Numbered from the stretch's first letter, positions 20,790 through 61,826 are shown. The stretch is 64,000 nt of DNA from Escherichia coli (GCF_030013205.1 NZ_CP122648.1), one strand, 5' to 3'. Notes: generated from the letters alone by a model not told the origin. Program-made: numbers and translations.

Positions 20790-21520
20790 GCATAGCCGGA
20801 GGTTTTTCAAATGCGCCTATAAGGCTCTCTTACCAGCCGCGCCCTAACAGGCGCACACGATCTGACATTTGCATCCAACTTCGTTACTTACGGCCCGTAA
20901 ACGGGCTGCCCGGATAGGGAATCGATAACTGCTCTCCCATTTTATCCTCTTCAAGCTGGTGCTTTATGTAATCCTGTATCTTCGCCGTGTTCTTACCCAC
21001 CGTATCGACGTAGTACCCTCTGCACCAGAACTCTCTGTTCCTGTATTTGAATTTCAAATCACCAAACTGCTCGTAAAGCATCAGACTGCTTTTCCCTTTC
21101 AGATATCCCATAAAGCCGGATACGCTCATTTTGGGCGGGATCTCCACAAGCATATGGATATGATCTGCACAGCATTCAGCTTCAAGAATCCGTACGCTTT
21201 TCCACTCACACAGCTTTCTCAAAATACTGCCTATTGCTCTACGCTTCTCTCTGTAGAACACTTGTCTTCGGTATTTTGGCGCAAAAACTATGTGATATTT
21301 ACAGTTCCATCGGGTGTGCGCTAAGCTCTTTTCGTTCCCCATTGGGACCCCCTTTTGATTTCTTGTTTGACACTTGCAGTTGCCAGACCGCAAGGTGTTT
21401 TAACAAATCAAAAGGGGTTTTAATAACTGGCTCAAAGCTGAAAGCTTTCCGGAACCCCCAGCCTAGCTGGGGGTTTTCTGTGCACAAAAAAAACGCCGAC
21501 AATGTGCCGACGTTTTGATA
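20790..21520 (-). mobile_element. IS200-type insertion sequence (IS200/IS605 family); boundaries approximate
   Basis: The ycaL-aroA spacer is ~880 bp and contains a Y1 transposase ORF with flanking hairpins (e.g. CCCCCAGCCTAGCTGGGGG at ~21463-21485); ends not mapped precisely. Confidence 0.6.
20884..21342 (-). CDS. tnpA: IS200 transposase TnpA (HuH/Y1 single-strand transposase), 152 aa
   Basis: MGNEKSLAHTRWNCKYHIVFAPKYRR...ADHIHML (HuH motif)...; near-identical to recalled IS200 TnpA. Confidence 0.9.
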   Translation of the reverse strand: MGNEKSLAHTRWNCKYHIVFAPKYRRQVFYREKRRAIGSILRKLCEWKSVRILEAECCADHIHMLVEIPPKMSVSGFMGYLKGKSSLMLYEQFGDLKFKYRNREFWCRGYYVDTVGKNTAKIQDYIKHQLEEDKMGEQLSIPYPGSPFTGRK

Positions 21521-39223: not shown

Positions 39224-39393
39224 AATGGCTCACTCAAGCTTGCTCACGATTGATTCCAGTAACAAACCGTATTGTGTAATTATTTCTATAGCAGGTCGCT
39301 ATATAGGCTTGTATACATCGAATAATTTGAAAATCAAAGAGATAGGTAGATTTTCACTCGAAAGTAGTATTACGTGTAAGTGAGGAGTAATTA

Positions 39394-39407
39394 TTGTTCG
39401 GTATCAA
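39394..39407 (-). promoter_or_regulatory. Putative FNR-like half-site pair upstream of dmsA
   Basis: TTGTT-CGGT-ATCAA resembles the FNR consensus; distance to the dmsA start (~180 bp) makes assignment uncertain. Confidence 0.25.
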
Positions 39408-39419
39408 AGGGAGACAAAA

Positions 39420-39439
39420 AAAGCGCCCGCAGGCGCTTT
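39420..39439. repeat. attL: 20-bp direct repeat AAAGCGCCCGCAGGCGCTTT (prophage boundary)
   Basis: Identical copy at 60471-60490; palindromic stem; here followed on the minus strand by a T-run, i.e. the intact host terminator context. Confidence 0.8.
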
Positions 39440-39522
39440 AACGTTTCTTGCTCCCCCTGATGATTTACTTATTTTTCAACGAATAAGCCAAAACAGGGGG
39501 AACAAATTAACACAAATTATAA

Positions 39523-40515
39523 CTAATCGATGGACAGTTTATGGACACTTTCAGCCAGCGGATTAAAGTTGATCGCGTCCTGTAAGAAGTCCGGCGAAAA
39601 ATGAGCGTACGTCATTGTTTGCTGAATCGTTGCGTGCCCCAGGATTCGTTGCAACGTAACAATATTTCCGCCATTCATCATAAAGTGTGTGGCAAATGTA
39701 TGACGCATGACATGCGTAGCCTGCCCCTTCGGCAAATCCGGTTTCACCTCCTGAAGAATCTCCCGGAACTTCAGATAATCAACCTGATACAATAACCCCG
39801 TTCGACGGGTTTTAATCAGAGGCACGACCGAATCCGCCACAGGAACCGAACGGGATTTTCCGTTTTTGGTGTTAAAGAACGTCACCCGGTTGCCAACGAT
39901 ATGCTCTCCACGTAGTTCCGATGCTTCACTCCATCGGGCACCAGTAGAAAGACACAGAATGGCAACACGACGCGCATCACCCTCCAGTCGCTCAAGAAGC
40001 CGTTCAATCTCATCATCAGAAAGAAAGGCCATCTCTGTGTTCTGAACTTTCAGTTTTCGTATACCGCGTACAGGGTTCGCGTTGTGAAAGACCTCAGCTT
40101 CAATCAGCACCGTGAACATGGTAGACAGTACGCATAAGTCACGATTAATACTGGACGGCATTAATCCGGCCTGTAATTTCTCTGACCGATATTCAAGCAT
40201 AAATTTTCGCGTCATCTGACTGGCGCGAGGATCTCCCATTTCACGAACAACCTTCCCTAGCCTAACCCTGTAGCTATCCCCGTAAGCCTGATTACGCCCA
40301 TCAAGCATCCACCACGCATCAAGCAGCTCTGATAATCGCCGCTGATCAGCTGGCTTAGCCTGCCATGGCTTGTCATGAAAGTTCTGTAACACATACTTCT
40401 CAAACTCCTGAGCCTTTGATTTCAGGGCAAAGATTTTTCGAATCCGCTTTCCTTCCGCCCCCTGCGGTCTGACATCGACCTGATAACGTCCGTCTTTGAG
40501 TTGCTTAATCGACAT
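39523..40515 (-). CDS. int: Phage integrase (tyrosine recombinase, P2 Int-like)
   Basis: N-terminus MSIKQLKDGRYQVDVRPQG resembles P2 Int; C-terminal catalytic region with HxxR...Y; adjacent to attL. Confidence 0.88.
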   Translation of the reverse strand: MSIKQLKDGRYQVDVRPQGAEGKRIRKIFALKSKAQEFEKYVLQNFHDKPWQAKPADQRRLSELLDAWWMLDGRNQAYGDSYRVRLGKVVREMGDPRASQMTRKFMLEYRSEKLQAGLMPSSINRDLCVLSTMFTVLIEAEVFHNANPVRGIRKLKVQNTEMAFLSDDEIERLLERLEGDARRVAILCLSTGARWSEASELRGEHIVGNRVTFFNTKNGKSRSVPVADSVVPLIKTRRTGLLYQVDYLKFREILQEVKPDLPKGQATHVMRHTFATHFMMNGGNIVTLQRILGHATIQQTMTYAHFSPDFLQDAINFNPLAESVHKLSID

Positions 40516-45637: not shown

Positions 45638-46004
45638 TTAAACCCGGCCAGTGAAAATCACTGGCCGGAGCAGTATCAGGATTTTTTAGTATGCCGTTCT
45701 CACAAAAAAACCGCTTGCCATGCCGCAATCAGTCAGGTTACATTTCCGCTGCACCTCATAAAACGGGTGCCGGGATTTCCACCCCGCTGACAACCAAAGC
45801 GCACAACCGCGCCAGCGGTTTTTTTGTGCGTACCGTATCGCCACGTCTTTTTCGCACACGAATTATGGTGGGGCGTATGGGGCCGACTTCGGTCGGGCCG
45901 GGTTCTTTGGTTGCCGGTTGTGGAAACCCTGTACGTCTCACCACCCCGAGTTTTCCACCTCTGGATGGTGAGTTTTCAAAACTTACAACCAAAGAGGCCA
46001 CACC

Positions 46005-46679: not shown

Positions 46680-46967
46680 ATGACAGCAGAGTACATCAGG
46701 GACTGGCAACAACCGCGCCACGCAGTGGGGCGTGAAGGAACGGGGATCCCTGCTCCTGAAGCGGTGGAAGGTGTCGCAACGTCACAGGCCGACATTATCG
46801 ACCGTTTTAATGCGCTGGAAACCCGCCATCAGCAGGACAGCCAGAAAATCACTTTACTGACCACAGAGCTGACAGCACTGAAGGAAAAACTGCGCACGCA
46901 GGACGGCGATCCGCAGAACCGGTTCACCGCAACGGGCGCAGCCTCCGATCAACTGGCTGACTTCTGA
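46680..46967 (+). CDS. Hypothetical phage protein, 95 aa
   Basis: Tightly packed ORF. Confidence 0.45.
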   Translation: MTAEYIRDWQQPRHAVGREGTGIPAPEAVEGVATSQADIIDRFNALETRHQQDSQKITLLTTELTALKEKLRTQDGDPQNRFTATGAASDQLADF

Positions 46968-46990
46968 TAAGACAAAGGAGCAAATTTTTT

Positions 46991-47254
46991 ATGAATCTGG
47001 TGATGTCAGATATTACCCGCAACAAGCTGGGTTGCTATATGGCGCAGCAGGCGTCGCTTAACAACATCCCGGTATCTGCACTGGTATCGCGATTTACCGT
47101 GGAACCCTCGGTGTCCGCCATTGCTGCCGCACTGCATGTGCACGGTGTGCAACGCGTGGAAATAATCGAACCCACACAGAATATGGCCATCAGCGACATA
47201 CAGGCGGCGCGCTGTGAGTCATTCACCATCAGCGAAGGTGGACGCAATGAGTAA
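46991..47254 (+). CDS. Short ORF (87 aa) overlapping the gpI start; possibly a 3' remnant of baseplate gene J
   Basis: 8-bp overlap with gpI as expected for a J/I junction; far shorter than P2 J (~300 aa). Confidence 0.35.
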   Translation: MNLVMSDITRNKLGCYMAQQASLNNIPVSALVSRFTVEPSVSAIAAALHVHGVQRVEIIEPTQNMAISDIQAARCESFTISEGGRNE

Positions 47255-50442: not shown

Positions 50443-51059
50443 TGGCATTCAGAATGAGTGAACAATCACGTACTGTAAAAATTTATAACCTGCTGGCCGG
50501 AACTAATGAGTTTATTGGTGAAGGTGACGCATATATTCCACCTCATACAGGGCTGCCAGCCAATTCTACAGATATCGCCCCACCGGAAATTCCTGCTGGC
50601 TTTGTGGCAGTTTTTAACAGTGAAAATGAATCGTGGAATATTGTTGAAGACCATCGTGGTAAAACGGTCTATGACGTGGCATCGGGGGACGCGTTGTTTA
50701 TTTCTGAACCCGGACCGCTACCAGAGAATGTCACCTGGTTGTCGCCAGCAGGGGAGTATCAGAAGTGGGACGGCGTATCCTGGGTGAAGGATGAGGAAGC
50801 AGAAAAACTGTTTCGGATACGGGAAGCGGAAGAGAAAAAGGCAAGGTTGATCCAGGAAGCAACAGATAACATCGCAATTCTGCAGGATGCAGTTAATCTT
50901 GAAATAGCAACAAACGAGGAAAATTCACAACTGGATTCCTGGAGAAAATACAGAGTATTAGTGAGTAGAATTGACACCAGTACAGCTCCGGATATCGTAT
51001 GGCCAGAGCTGATGAATCAGGGTTATGTGCGGGAGGACGAGCAGATAACTTCAGACTGA
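50442..51059 (+). CDS. Tail fiber assembly chaperone (P2 gpG/Tfa-like), 205 aa
   Basis: TAATG-coupled to the fiber gene; Tfa-like sequence. Confidence 0.8.
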
Positions 51060-51586
51060 AATTTAGTGATGAATGTTGAATCATCTGGAATATCATGCAA
51101 TACCAATGCATGAGCACCTATTGTGACATTGTTTCCTATACGCACTTTGCCACCAAGAATGGTGGCATTACAACCAATGGTCACATTATGTCCTATAACA
51201 ATATCCATATCATTAAAATCACCACGCAGCCCAATAGTTACCCCTGGTTTTATTGAACAATTTTCACCGATTGTTACTTTGTGACCGATAACAACACTGT
51301 TGAGATAAGAAATATCAAAGCCTTTCCCTATATTTACAGTTAAAGGGACTGTTACATTATATTTATCAAGAATGAAACGTTCTATTTTCCCCGCAATCTT
51401 CCGACAGCATCCGCCTTTATCAAAAAGGTATTTGGCTATGCGCCACCAAAATAAATAACGAACTCTTCTATGTTTTATTGCGCGAACAATTGCCTTTCGC
51501 CAGGAGAAAGGACGCTCGCTACCGATTACTTCATAGTGAATACAATCTTTAAGTTCATTAATATTCATATCTCTATTATTCAGCAT
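51023..51586 (-). CDS. Hexapeptide-repeat O-acetyltransferase (WcaB/CysE-like), 187 aa
   Basis: Left-handed beta-helix repeats ([45 protein letters not shown]); AT-rich; 37-bp convergent overlap with the fiber assembly gene. Confidence 0.75.
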
Positions 51587-58785: not shown

Positions 58786-59469
58786 ATGTCAGAGGACCAT
58801 GTTATGAATATGCAAATTTTTATTGGACCAACAGCCACAGTTGCCGCGGTCTGCCTTGCTGCATATTTTGCTTTACGAAATGAGCGTAAAAAGAAAGCGC
58901 TTGAGATTAGAACAACTCAACTAGATCGAATATCTGAGCTAGTAAGCAGAGCATCTACCAATTTGATGCAATATACAGGTACTCTTGCCTCTATACTGGA
59001 AGCGCACACCAAAGAAAATTATCTACCAGACCACAAATTTAACATTAATGAAATTAGCAAATGGAAAAATGATCTCGATAAGAGAGAAGATTGGGCTATT
59101 GATATACAGCAACTAAGAACATGCCAGCACAACCTGGAGTTTCATCGTGAAAAAGAATGGGCTGAATGGGAAAAAATAATTCCACCATTACTTGATAAAA
59201 TTAACCAATTTTTTCTCATATCCAAGCCGGGGCAACCTGTTACGCTTATAAATGGTCAAAATAAAACAGTCGATGAACTGATTGCTTTCTCAATATACTT
59301 ACAACAACAAACAGAAGAAATTAAAGCGGTACGTAAGCTGCTACTTTCTCAAATGAGAGAAGAATTCATCGAGTTAACTAGCTTTGAACCTGTCACAATA
59401 TTTAGCTTATTAAAATCAATAAAGAAAAGTGTCCTGCAATTTTTCTGTATCAGTGCTCTTAAAAATTGA
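58786..59469 (+). CDS. Membrane-anchored hypothetical protein, 227 aa, AT-rich cargo between D and ogr
   Basis: N-terminal TM helix (IFIGPTATVAAVCLAAYFAL) then ~190-aa charged helical domain; low GC; followed by a hairpin terminator at ~59483-59512. Confidence 0.6.
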   Translation: MSEDHVMNMQIFIGPTATVAAVCLAAYFALRNERKKKALEIRTTQLDRISELVSRASTNLMQYTGTLASILEAHTKENYLPDHKFNINEISKWKNDLDKREDWAIDIQQLRTCQHNLEFHREKEWAEWEKIIPPLLDKINQFFLISKPGQPVTLINGQNKTVDELIAFSIYLQQQTEEIKAVRKLLLSQMREEFIELTSFEPVTIFSLLKSIKKSVLQFFCISALKN

Positions 59470-59618
59470 CGCTCTGTTACAAGCAACCCCAGTGTTAAAC
59501 TGGGGTTATTCTTGCTAAGAGACCTTTATACGGCATAAGTAAACAAAGAGAACTATCAGTTGGAGTCTGGGCAAGTTCAGCCTAAACTAGCGACAGTACC
59601 ACGTTAAGGGAGGTCGCT

Positions 59619-59879
59619 ATGTTCCGTTGTCCGCTTTGTGGCGCATCTGCCCGTATCCGCACCAGTCGTCCGGAAAATGATTCAAACACCGTGCGGCAAA
59701 AGTATTACCAGTGCAACAACCTGGAATGCGGCGTATGCTTCTCAACACTGGAAGCTTTCCATAAATTCACATCGAAACACGCCTCCGGCATCCACTCTTC
59801 AGAAGGTATCCCGTGGCATGAGCTGCCAGCTTCACACAGGGGAAACAATCAGATGAGCTTGCCTTTACCTCAGAATTAA
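59619..59879 (+). CDS. ogr: Ogr/Delta-like zinc-finger late gene activator, 86 aa
   Basis: MFRCPLCGASARIRTSR...QKYYQCNNLECG: CxxC...CxxC arrangement as in P2 Ogr. Confidence 0.8.
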   Translation: MFRCPLCGASARIRTSRPENDSNTVRQKYYQCNNLECGVCFSTLEAFHKFTSKHASGIHSSEGIPWHELPASHRGNNQMSLPLPQN

Positions 59880-59939
59880 CAGGCAGAATTGCCGGAGTAA
59901 CAAAAAAGCGATAGATTACGCGCGGGTGCCTTTCGGCTG

Positions 59940-60152
59940 ATGGTCGGAGGGAATACCCGAAGGCCGGATGTGGAAAGGCCCCGGAAAACATTTTTGTTTA
60001 ACCGAGGCCCTGACCATACAACCTTCGCAAGTCGTAGGTTAGCGCCTCTCCAACAAAGGAGCAAGCGCTATGTCGCAAAAATCGCTTATGGCCATCACGT
60101 TCTGCGTGACGGTAATCCTCATCATCTGGATGCTGCACGGTTCGCTGTGTGA
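59940..60152 (+). CDS. Mok-like reading frame overlapping the hok-like toxin gene
   Basis: 70-codon ORF in another frame, starting upstream of and ending within the toxin ORF, as in hok/mok loci. Confidence 0.4.
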   Translation: MVGGNTRRPDVERPRKTFLFNRGPDHTTFASRRLAPLQQRSKRYVAKIAYGHHVLRDGNPHHLDAARFAV

Positions 60153-60210
60153 AATACGGATGAGCTTCTGGGGAGCGGAGTTTGCGGCGTTCTTACAGTG
60201 TAAGCAGTAA
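60070..60210 (+). CDS. Hok/Gef-family type I toxin, 46 aa (MSQKSLMAITFCVTVILIIWMLHGSLCEIRMSFWGAEFAAFLQCKQ)
   Basis: N-terminal TM helix then SLCEIR and AAF motifs characteristic of Hok-family toxins; RBS AAGGAG 8 nt upstream; below the ORF-track length cutoff. Confidence 0.75.
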   Translation: MSQKSLMAITFCVTVILIIWMLHGSLCEIRMSFWGAEFAAFLQCKQ

Positions 60211-60302
60211 GGAAACCGCGACGGGGGAGCAATCCCCCGTCAATCGGTTGCCAGGGTAAAGGTCGAAAAGGCACCCTATTTCCAGTTGACGTGAACAACA
60301 AG

Positions 60303-60336
60303 CCCGCAGCGTAAAAACTGCGGGTTTTCTTTTTGG
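60303..60336 (+). terminator. Rho-independent terminator, likely 3' end of the hok-like mRNA
   Basis: CCCGCAG-loop-CTGCGGG followed by TTTTCTTTTT. Confidence 0.6.
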
Positions 60337-60367
60337 TTCCCTCACTCATGAGGAAACCAAAAACAAA

Positions 60368-60396
60368 GCCCACAGCATAGAAGCTGTGGGCTTTTT
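60368..60396. terminator. Bidirectional hairpin terminator between the hok-like locus and serS
   Basis: GCCCACAGC-ATAGAA-GCTGTGGGC with T-runs on both strands. Confidence 0.55.
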
Positions 60397-60470
60397 GCAT
60401 TCAAAGATGGACGTTATATGGACACTTAAAAATAAAATCCATTTATTTTCAAATGATTAAACCTCTACTT

Positions 60471-60490
60471 AAAGCGCCCGCAGGCGCTTT
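60471..60490. repeat. attR: 20-bp direct repeat AAAGCGCCCGCAGGCGCTTT
   Basis: Identical to 39420-39439; 23 bp downstream of the serS stop. Confidence 0.8.
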
Positions 60491-60512
60491 TTAGATTCAG
60501 AAAAATTGGGTA

Positions 60513-61826
<1,314 letters not shown>

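Follow-up and report, generated by a model that had tools for sequence, protein, structure and literature searches.

A hok/sok-type toxin-antitoxin module, apparently without a conserved mok, at the attR end of a defective P2-like prophage of Escherichia coli

The window, a stretch of 64,000 nucleotides of an Escherichia coli chromosome (GCF_030013205.1, NZ_CP122648.1; positions are counted from its first letter), contains a P88-like (Xuanwuvirus) member of the P2-like prophages with a small gene of the Hok/Gef family at its right end. The RefSeq gene order runs from dmsA through the prophage, from integrase through the tail genes to ogr, and then to the Hok/Gef family protein and serS. The hok locus lies between ogr (59619-59879) and attR, 195 bp inside attR, in agreement with the right-end position given in the initial annotation. 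The attR core AAAGCGCCCGCAGGCGCTTT (60471-60490, assigned to neither strand) is the longest repeat common to both prophage ends, and an identical 20-bp copy at 39420-39439 represents the attL core. The match of prophage-free E. coli strains to the window starts only at 60471. The prophage is 21.0 kb long and is inserted in the serS terminator. It is defective, as judged from its size, compared with 33-37 kb for the complete relatives P88, Chuche, 500465-2 and Xuanwuvirus P884B11, and from the fragments of replication, scaffold and capsid genes that RefSeq annotates as pseudogenes. The fragments of the replication protein, GPO scaffold and P2-type major capsid genes are found side by side at 46680-47113, all as pseudogenes, and the prophage lacks the genes for portal and terminase as well as the majority of those for the head. 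Strain ETEC4079 (NZ_CP122643.1) and two other strains show 100% identity to the window over 59600-60520 (921 bases compared).

Several further features were observed around the prophage. The att core coincides with the terminator hairpin downstream of serS, which is also the 3' terminator of the small RNA STnc130. After integration the complete Rfam match to STnc130 (39314-39448, 136 bits) is situated at attL, adjoining dmsA, and only the terminator fragment (60471-60490, 22 bits) is left beside serS. A pair of ATGGAC motifs with 11 bp spacing is present near both prophage ends (39530-39546 and 60407-60423); these pairs are possibly arm-type integrase binding sites of a P2-like attP. Within the early region of the prophage, at 45751-45948 on the plus strand, Rfam matches to the C4 antisense RNA (80.5 bits) and to isrK (64 bits) adjoin each other and overlap an annotated ash-family pseudogene, an arrangement that resembles a C4-ant immunity cassette of the P1/P7 type within a P2-like phage. 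The prophage contains two possible cargo genes: a serine acetyltransferase gene (51023-51568, minus strand), which follows the tail-fibre assembly gene in the opposite orientation, and a gene for a 221-residue hypothetical protein (58804-59469, plus strand) located between ogr and a truncated gpD-like gene. Two further structures lie between the hok module and attR, in the segment 60330-60396: an imperfect palindrome, TTTTTGGTTCCCTCA / CATGAGGAAACCAAAAA, and a hairpin (60365-60394) that scores as a minus-strand terminator; together they yield only spurious miRNA-type Rfam matches. Elsewhere in the window, an STnc490 match of 146 bits (21352-21475, minus strand) adjoins an IS200C transposase gene, a position consistent with the known IS200-associated small RNA.

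The toxin gene itself (60070-60210, plus strand) encodes a peptide of 46 residues, MSQKSLMAITFCVTVILIIWMLHGSLCEIRMSFWGAEFAAFLQCKQ, and is preceded by the Shine-Dalgarno (SD) sequence AAGGAG (60056-60061), 8 nt before the ATG. The 46-codon frame with a transmembrane helix followed by SLCEIR and AAF motifs, and the strong ribosome binding site, had both been proposed from the bare sequence and are confirmed here. The peptide matches Pfam HOK_GEF (PF01848) with 30.1 bits (E 3.7e-7), residues 7-44 covering model positions 5-42 of 42, and PHROG 251 ("MokW-like host killing") with 82.5 bits. Residues 6-22 are hydrophobic, and in an alignment Cys27, Glu28, Glu37, Ala39 and Ala40 are invariant across the 46-residue family, R1 Hok and HokA. 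Among the curated NCBIfam families the best match is HokA of E. coli K-12 (43% identity), with which the peptide shares the M-x-Q-K start, a W-M pair in the helix, the SLCE and AAFL-x-CK motifs and a second C-terminal cysteine. The curated NCBIfam cut-offs are not reached, however, with 35.1 bits against the 89 of the HokA equivalog NF007290 and 23.7 bits against the 73 of the Hok subfamily NF007279. Because its score is far under the equivalog cut-off the protein is not regarded as HokA, from which it also differs in genomic context, and because both scores are below the curated cut-offs it is placed in a divergent Hok/Gef subfamily.

It is evident that the gene is not unannotated, as had initially been stated. 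RefSeq/PGAP names exactly 60070-60210 "Hok/Gef family protein" (WP_000078911.1), which is also the name of all 66 named relatives found in a search of 5.8 billion proteins, and records of P88-like phages name the protein "MokW-like host killing". The assignment to a Hok-family type I toxin-antitoxin locus is upheld by the Pfam and PHROG 251 matches, the RefSeq name and the hok-mRNA-like pairing of the transcript ends described below. Annotation of the tac, ucb and fbi elements or of a Sok-like RNA for the 46-residue subfamily was not found in the records searched, and PADLOC has no model that covers the module.

The limits of the module follow from comparison of its copies. Homology to the copies in Stx phages covers exactly 59903-60276; it sets in at the -10 box and extends to the last base of the 3' pairing partner. 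Between unrelated contexts (Stx-phage, Salmonella and Klebsiella) homology begins about 20 nt before 59924 and stops at 60276. These breakpoints delimit a mobile unit independently of folding, and the conserved part of the hok mRNA corresponds to 59924-60276 on the plus strand, with tac at its 5' end and the fold-back partner fbi at its 3' end. A hok promoter is predicted at 59889-59917 (plus strand), with a -35 box TTGCCG (59889-59894), a 17-nt spacer and a -10 box TAGATT (59912-59917), which would place the transcript start near G59924. The -10 box (TAGATT, TAAATT or TAGAAT) lies 6 nt before GGGTGCC in the 15 listed representative homologues that keep the 5' end. A consensus promoter scan found no promoter, the hok promoter scoring 8/12 at a threshold of 9/12; it is taken to be weak and constitutive. 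Both this promoter and that of the antisense RNA were found by reading the sequence and by regular expressions across homologues, which is weaker evidence. At the 3' side, the initial annotation had included a terminator at 60303-60336 in the locus. An intrinsic-terminator-like hairpin (60300-60327) followed by a T run is indeed present at 60300-60336 on the plus strand, outside the conserved module; it is common to P88-like phages and absent from Stx-phage and Salmonella copies. It was rejected as a module part, since homology in other contexts ends at 60276, and belongs to the backbone of P88-type phages.

The ends of the predicted mRNA are complementary. The 5' segment GGGTGCCTTTCG (59924-59935) can pair with CGAAAAGGCACCC (60264-60276) through 10 contiguous pairs, one bulged A and CG/CG, and this pairing, which had been proposed to match the tac/fbi fold-back of hok mRNAs, is found in the minimum-free-energy fold of 59924-60280 (-154.7 kcal/mol, z = -5.4; none of 100 shuffles as good). 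The corresponding elements are tac-like GGGUGCCUUUCGGCU (59924-59938) and fbi-like GGUCGAAAAGGCACCC (60261-60276), both on the plus strand, the latter supported by the minimum-free-energy fold, the consensus fold and covariation. Conservation was analysed in an alignment, A2, of 26 non-redundant homologues from -156 to +231 around the ATG, built without fitting to a model. The RNAalifold consensus retains the 5'-3' helix, with columns 17-23 and 379-385 paired to 98% and nearly invariant. In the inner part, columns 26-30 with 370-375, four of the five pairs show compensatory changes (for example UA:19/CG:6, CG:20/GC:3 and GC:18/AU:3); the Salmonella rows have indels near columns 26-30. Overall, 96.4% of the tac/fbi cells are paired in the 26 homologues, falling to 29-49% when the 3' partner is slid by 1-3 columns. 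The compensatory changes and this slide control, together with the fold, substantiate the proposed long-range pairing.

Removal of the 3' end switches both the consensus fold and the fold of the window sequence. The 5' end then pairs with the ucb-like box GAAAGGCCCC (59973-59982, plus strand), which in the full-length fold holds CGAGGC (60003-60008); thus freed, this segment pairs through GAGGC (60004-60008) with GCCUC (60044-60048), around the predicted Sok target. The latter stem (60004-60048, plus strand; helix 4, 98% paired) is present in the truncated fold only. In the full-length fold CUCUCC pairs with the hok SD, which becomes essentially single-stranded in the truncated fold. In the truncated alignment the helix of columns 17-30 with 63-75 is 97% paired and has three compensatory pairs. 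The covariation of columns 26 and 27 extends both to their 3' partners (375 and 374) and to their upstream partners (67 and 66), with counts for the tac/ucb pairs of UA:20 and CG:6 for 26-67 and of CG:19 and GC:3 for 27-66. Such coupled covariation is the hallmark of the two alternative folds of hok mRNAs, as read from the aligned sequences. A GC-rich hairpin in the 3' untranslated region, GACGGGGGA-GCAA-UCCCCCGUC (60220-60241, plus strand; helix 14), shows compensatory changes in 5 of its 9 pairs and is paired in 98.7% of cells. In the R1 model the last stem-loop of the truncated hok mRNA is its protective terminal stem (PMC9841398), and by analogy this hairpin is presumed to form the 3' end of the processed mRNA.

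An Rfam scan at the gathering threshold gives no hok or sok match. In E-value mode, RF01794 matches 59924-60080 over the full model length, on the sense strand, with 41.4 bits (E 9.6e-8), below its gathering score of 59. The relatives score 35.6-57.2 bits, and an R1-type control (L097) scores 87.2 bits on the same, sense, strand. RF01794 is named "sok antitoxin"; in the window and in the control it covers the hok mRNA from +1 to the hok ATG, and its consensus also includes the GAGGC/GCCUC stem. Since the match is on the sense strand in both cases, RF01794 models the hok leader, and the match marks this leader and not the antisense RNA strand. The proposed identity thus finds support in a full-length model match with an E-value of the order of 1e-7, which remains under the gathering score and concerns the sense leader.

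On the opposite strand a Sok-like RNA of about 60 nt is predicted from folding and covariation at 59968-60029 (minus strand), consisting of a variable 5' tail of about 20 nt, a GGCCUCGG...CCGGGGCC hairpin and UUUCC. Its predicted fold has -24.5 kcal/mol (z = -3.6), and compensatory changes preserve the pairing within the hairpin (helix 5). The target of the 5' tail is the most variable stretch within the module (0.78, against 0.94-0.96 in the flanks), the pattern expected if copies diversify to avoid cross-talk. The predicted promoter (60036-60064, minus strand) has a -35 box TTGCTC (complement of 60059-60064), a 17-nt spacer and a -10 box TAACCT (complement of 60036-60041). In the aligned homologues the -35 box is TTGCTC, TTGCCT, TTGACT or TTTACT, the spacer 17-18 nt, and the -10 box TAACCT, TATCCT or, in one sequence, TAAGCT. 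By regular expression, -35 box, spacer and -10 box occur in the same order on the minus strand of 26 of 26 homologues, and promoter and terminator together are predicted in all 26; both promoters of the module are weak matches, and a generic consensus scan missed this one as well. The Sok-like transcript that the initial annotation had anticipated therefore stands as a predicted, conserved promoter-terminator set that a generic promoter scan does not detect. As the promoter overlaps the hok SD and leader, its conservation could instead reflect these hok elements.

Of 5426 complete E. coli genomes, 1548 (28%) carry the 374-bp module (59903-60276), and a single genome can have as many as 7 copies. 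Copies in P88-like phages have 94-96% identity, and those in Stx-converting lambdoid phages, directly downstream of lom, have 74-84% identity; isolated phages that carry the module include P88, Chuche and 933W. The 46-residue subfamily is found in P2-like and Stx phages, in Salmonella prophages and plasmids and in Klebsiella, and the identical protein recurs in several genomes. A Salmonella copy (L091) adjoins a TraI relaxase gene, another (L093) is located at a prophage end beside fieF and pfkA, and a Klebsiella oxytoca copy (L095) is located beside ppiD. In the alignment-based search for related loci, all 80 IMG/VR loci listed have at least 96% protein identity, some with differing leaders; the deeper diversity was drawn from phage records and from a search for contigs encoding the peptide. 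The module is a known hok/sok-type system, real and widespread.

Individual copies show some further particulars. The 933W copy is situated just downstream of lom (AF125520, 45491-45865; L084, 2521-2875), where AF125520 has no feature and the next ORF, L0129, starts within the fbi element. Many Stx phages carry the 46-residue hok module downstream of lom, distinct from the published hokW. Two Salmonella enterica loci (L089, 2345-3222, and L090, 2345-3226) contain two complete tandem copies about 490 bp apart, which differ in the leader and by 2-12 peptide residues. Decayed copies were also observed: in L093 (Salmonella, 2345-2732) unrelated sequence replaces the promoter and tac and the hok ORF and fbi are kept, and in L071 (IMG/VR, 1045-1432) a mutated tac, GGACACC, does not pair with its own fbi.

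The module resembles hok/mok/sok (parB) of plasmid R1 in encoding a small Hok/Gef membrane toxin, in its tac/fbi pairing and alternative tac/ucb pairing with coupled covariation, in the GC-rich hairpin after the stop codon, and in the predicted antisense terminator formed from the complement of the ucb...GAGGC hairpin. The predicted cis-antisense promoter overlaps the hok SD region, as in R1, with 17-nt spacing and a TAnCCT -10 box; the R1 sok promoter of the control, TTGCGC-17-TATCCT, has the same layout. The control shows the same order of parts and has a further terminator hairpin after its fbi. In contrast to R1, the module is phage-borne instead of plasmid-borne, its toxin has 46 residues instead of 52 with 30% identity, its leader scores 41 bits in Rfam against 87, its predicted antisense promoter is 8 nt closer to the hok ATG, and it has no conserved mok, the hok gene having its own strong SD. 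With hokW-sokW of the Stx2 phages Sp5/933W it shares the prophage location and the PHROG 251 family name. HokW, however, has 51 residues (MKQQKAM...) and the leader GGGTGCTTGAGGCTATCTGCC (primers and text of PMC8621323), and the 933W relative of the present module is a second copy, beside lom. Orthology with hokW was rejected on account of the length of HokW and its different locus in 933W (PMC8621323).

Taken together, the locus is very probably a type I toxin-antitoxin module of the hok/sok type that is still intact; a P88-like phage, here a defective prophage, would carry it as cargo, placed between ogr and attP. From the presumed weak constitutive promoter, transcription would begin near 59924 and yield an mRNA of at least about 353 nt. 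In the closed full-length form, whose pairings are supported by covariation, tac would pair with fbi (60261-60276), the box at 59973-59982 would hold CGAGGC and CUCUCC would mask the hok SD, as a consequence of which the mRNA should be silent. Slow trimming from the 3' end to the 60220-60241 hairpin, as in R1, would strip off fbi. Folding and the coupled covariation suggest that tac would then re-pair with 59973-59982 and GAGGC with GCCUC, which would open the SD. The predicted short-lived antisense RNA of about 60 nt, running from about 60029 to 59968, would pair with the exposed leader, and the duplex would be decayed by RNase III, as in R1 and hokW; dependence on RNase III and Hfq has been demonstrated for a prophage hok/sok (PMC8621323). 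Upon loss of the DNA or a stop of host transcription the antisense RNA would decay first, and the 46-residue peptide would be made and depolarise the inner membrane. Toxicity of the peptide is suggested by analogy, as 42 of 45 diverse Hok homologues tested were toxic (Escalera-Maurer et al., bioRxiv 10.1101/2025.08.07.668861); the exact peptide does not occur in the accessible part of the supplementary text of that survey.

The subfamily departs from R1 in one defining feature of the three-gene locus, mok, whose translation up to the hok SD is mandatory in R1 (PMC9841398). The initial annotation had noted a Mok-like frame overlapping hok, and the 70-codon ATG frame 59940-60152 is open in the window copy and stands in the same phase to hok as mok does in R1 (hok = mok + 1). 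This could point to a canonical three-gene hok/mok/sok locus, in which this frame, or a shorter one from GTG 59970 with a GAAGG motif 6 nt upstream, would be a true Mok coupled to Hok. Such an arrangement is highly improbable, however. An ORF in the Mok-like frame reaches the hok SD in only 15 of 36 representative homologues, with differing starts; the remaining 21 have no ORF with an ATG, GTG or TTG start, in any frame, that runs from upstream into the SD. P88, 933W and most others contain an in-frame stop upstream of the SD with no start codon after it, and the frame is open in the window owing to a TCG where most relatives have TGA or TAA. Furthermore, ATG 59940 lies within the tac stem and has no SD, and the position that would correspond to the mok start of R1, about 9 nt beyond GAGG, carries no start codon. 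A Mok was therefore rejected after three frames had been tested: the overlap with hok is real in this copy, but the frame is not conserved and appears to be a chance ORF. An in-frame 24-codon leader ORF (59968-60042) was also dropped, as its ATG is absent from Salmonella copies. The lack of a conserved mok, the strength of the SD and the predicted unmasking cascade make it probable that Hok is translated directly, from the SD of hok itself. The apparent absence of mok may mean that translation is controlled differently here, or that a mok is present whose start is non-canonical. Tentatively, and with somewhat less than even confidence, the 46-residue subfamily may be a naturally mok-less hok/sok variant, in which the GAGG box of the R1 mok SD is re-used as an anti-anti-SD, capture of ucb by tac lets the GAGGC/GCCUC stem directly unmask the strong hok SD, and the antisense RNA acts only via decay of its target and not by blocking a leader ORF.

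Whether the module is functional has to be weighed against the state of the prophage. A decaying hok in a dead prophage that makes neither toxin nor antisense RNA, like hokA, hokC and hokE of K-12, would agree with the 21.0-kb size and the replication, scaffold and capsid pseudogenes, and decayed family members do exist, as in the copies lacking the whole 5' tac region (L093) or carrying a mutated tac (L071). In the window copy, however, the ORF, its SD, the RNA elements tac, ucb and fbi and the 3' hairpin are intact, as are the two predicted promoters, its elements match those of copies in isolated phages, and the identical protein recurs in several genomes, which makes an inactive relic very unlikely. 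Three roles of hok/sok modules are described in the literature. Plasmid hok/sok systems serve in post-segregational stabilisation and phage exclusion (cited in the introduction of PMC8621323), and the 51-residue HokW helps lysis and phage release (PMC8621323). Conceivably, loss of the antisense RNA after induction would lead to early permeabilisation of the membrane by Hok and to more phage release, without any stabilisation of the prophage or abortion of superinfection. That hokW-sokW halves or doubles the yield of Sp5 and acts before holin and endolysin (PMC8621323) is in line with this possibility, as is the presence of the module in viable temperate phages from both the P2-like and the Stx lambdoid lineage, which are unrelated to each other. 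Yet HokW is a different Hok of 51 residues at another locus, and PADLOC, having no model, speaks neither way. Because the prophage is defective, lacking head genes and hence progeny to benefit, phage release is not a current advantage here, and as an account of the module's role this explanation seems rather unlikely. Among stabilisation, abortive infection and help with lysis, the sequence favours none of the three.

The overall significance of an intact hok/sok-type module at this site is small, as the gene is named in RefSeq and in phage records and surveys already report the enrichment of Hok in prophages. Hok has been found in about 80% of Enterobacteriaceae genomes, with a four-fold enrichment in prophages, and in 9.3% of Escherichia phages, in a survey that deliberately left out Mok, Sok and mRNA structure (10.1101/2025.08.07.668861). 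A useful bookkeeping point is that the original 933W record leaves its 46-residue hok copy unannotated. Moreover, as the subfamily always scores below the RF01794 gathering score, scans at that score miss the module in 28% of complete E. coli genomes. The one point that appears to be new is a Hok subfamily that seems to lack mok, and this apparent absence would provide a natural test case for the generality of the R1 coupling model.
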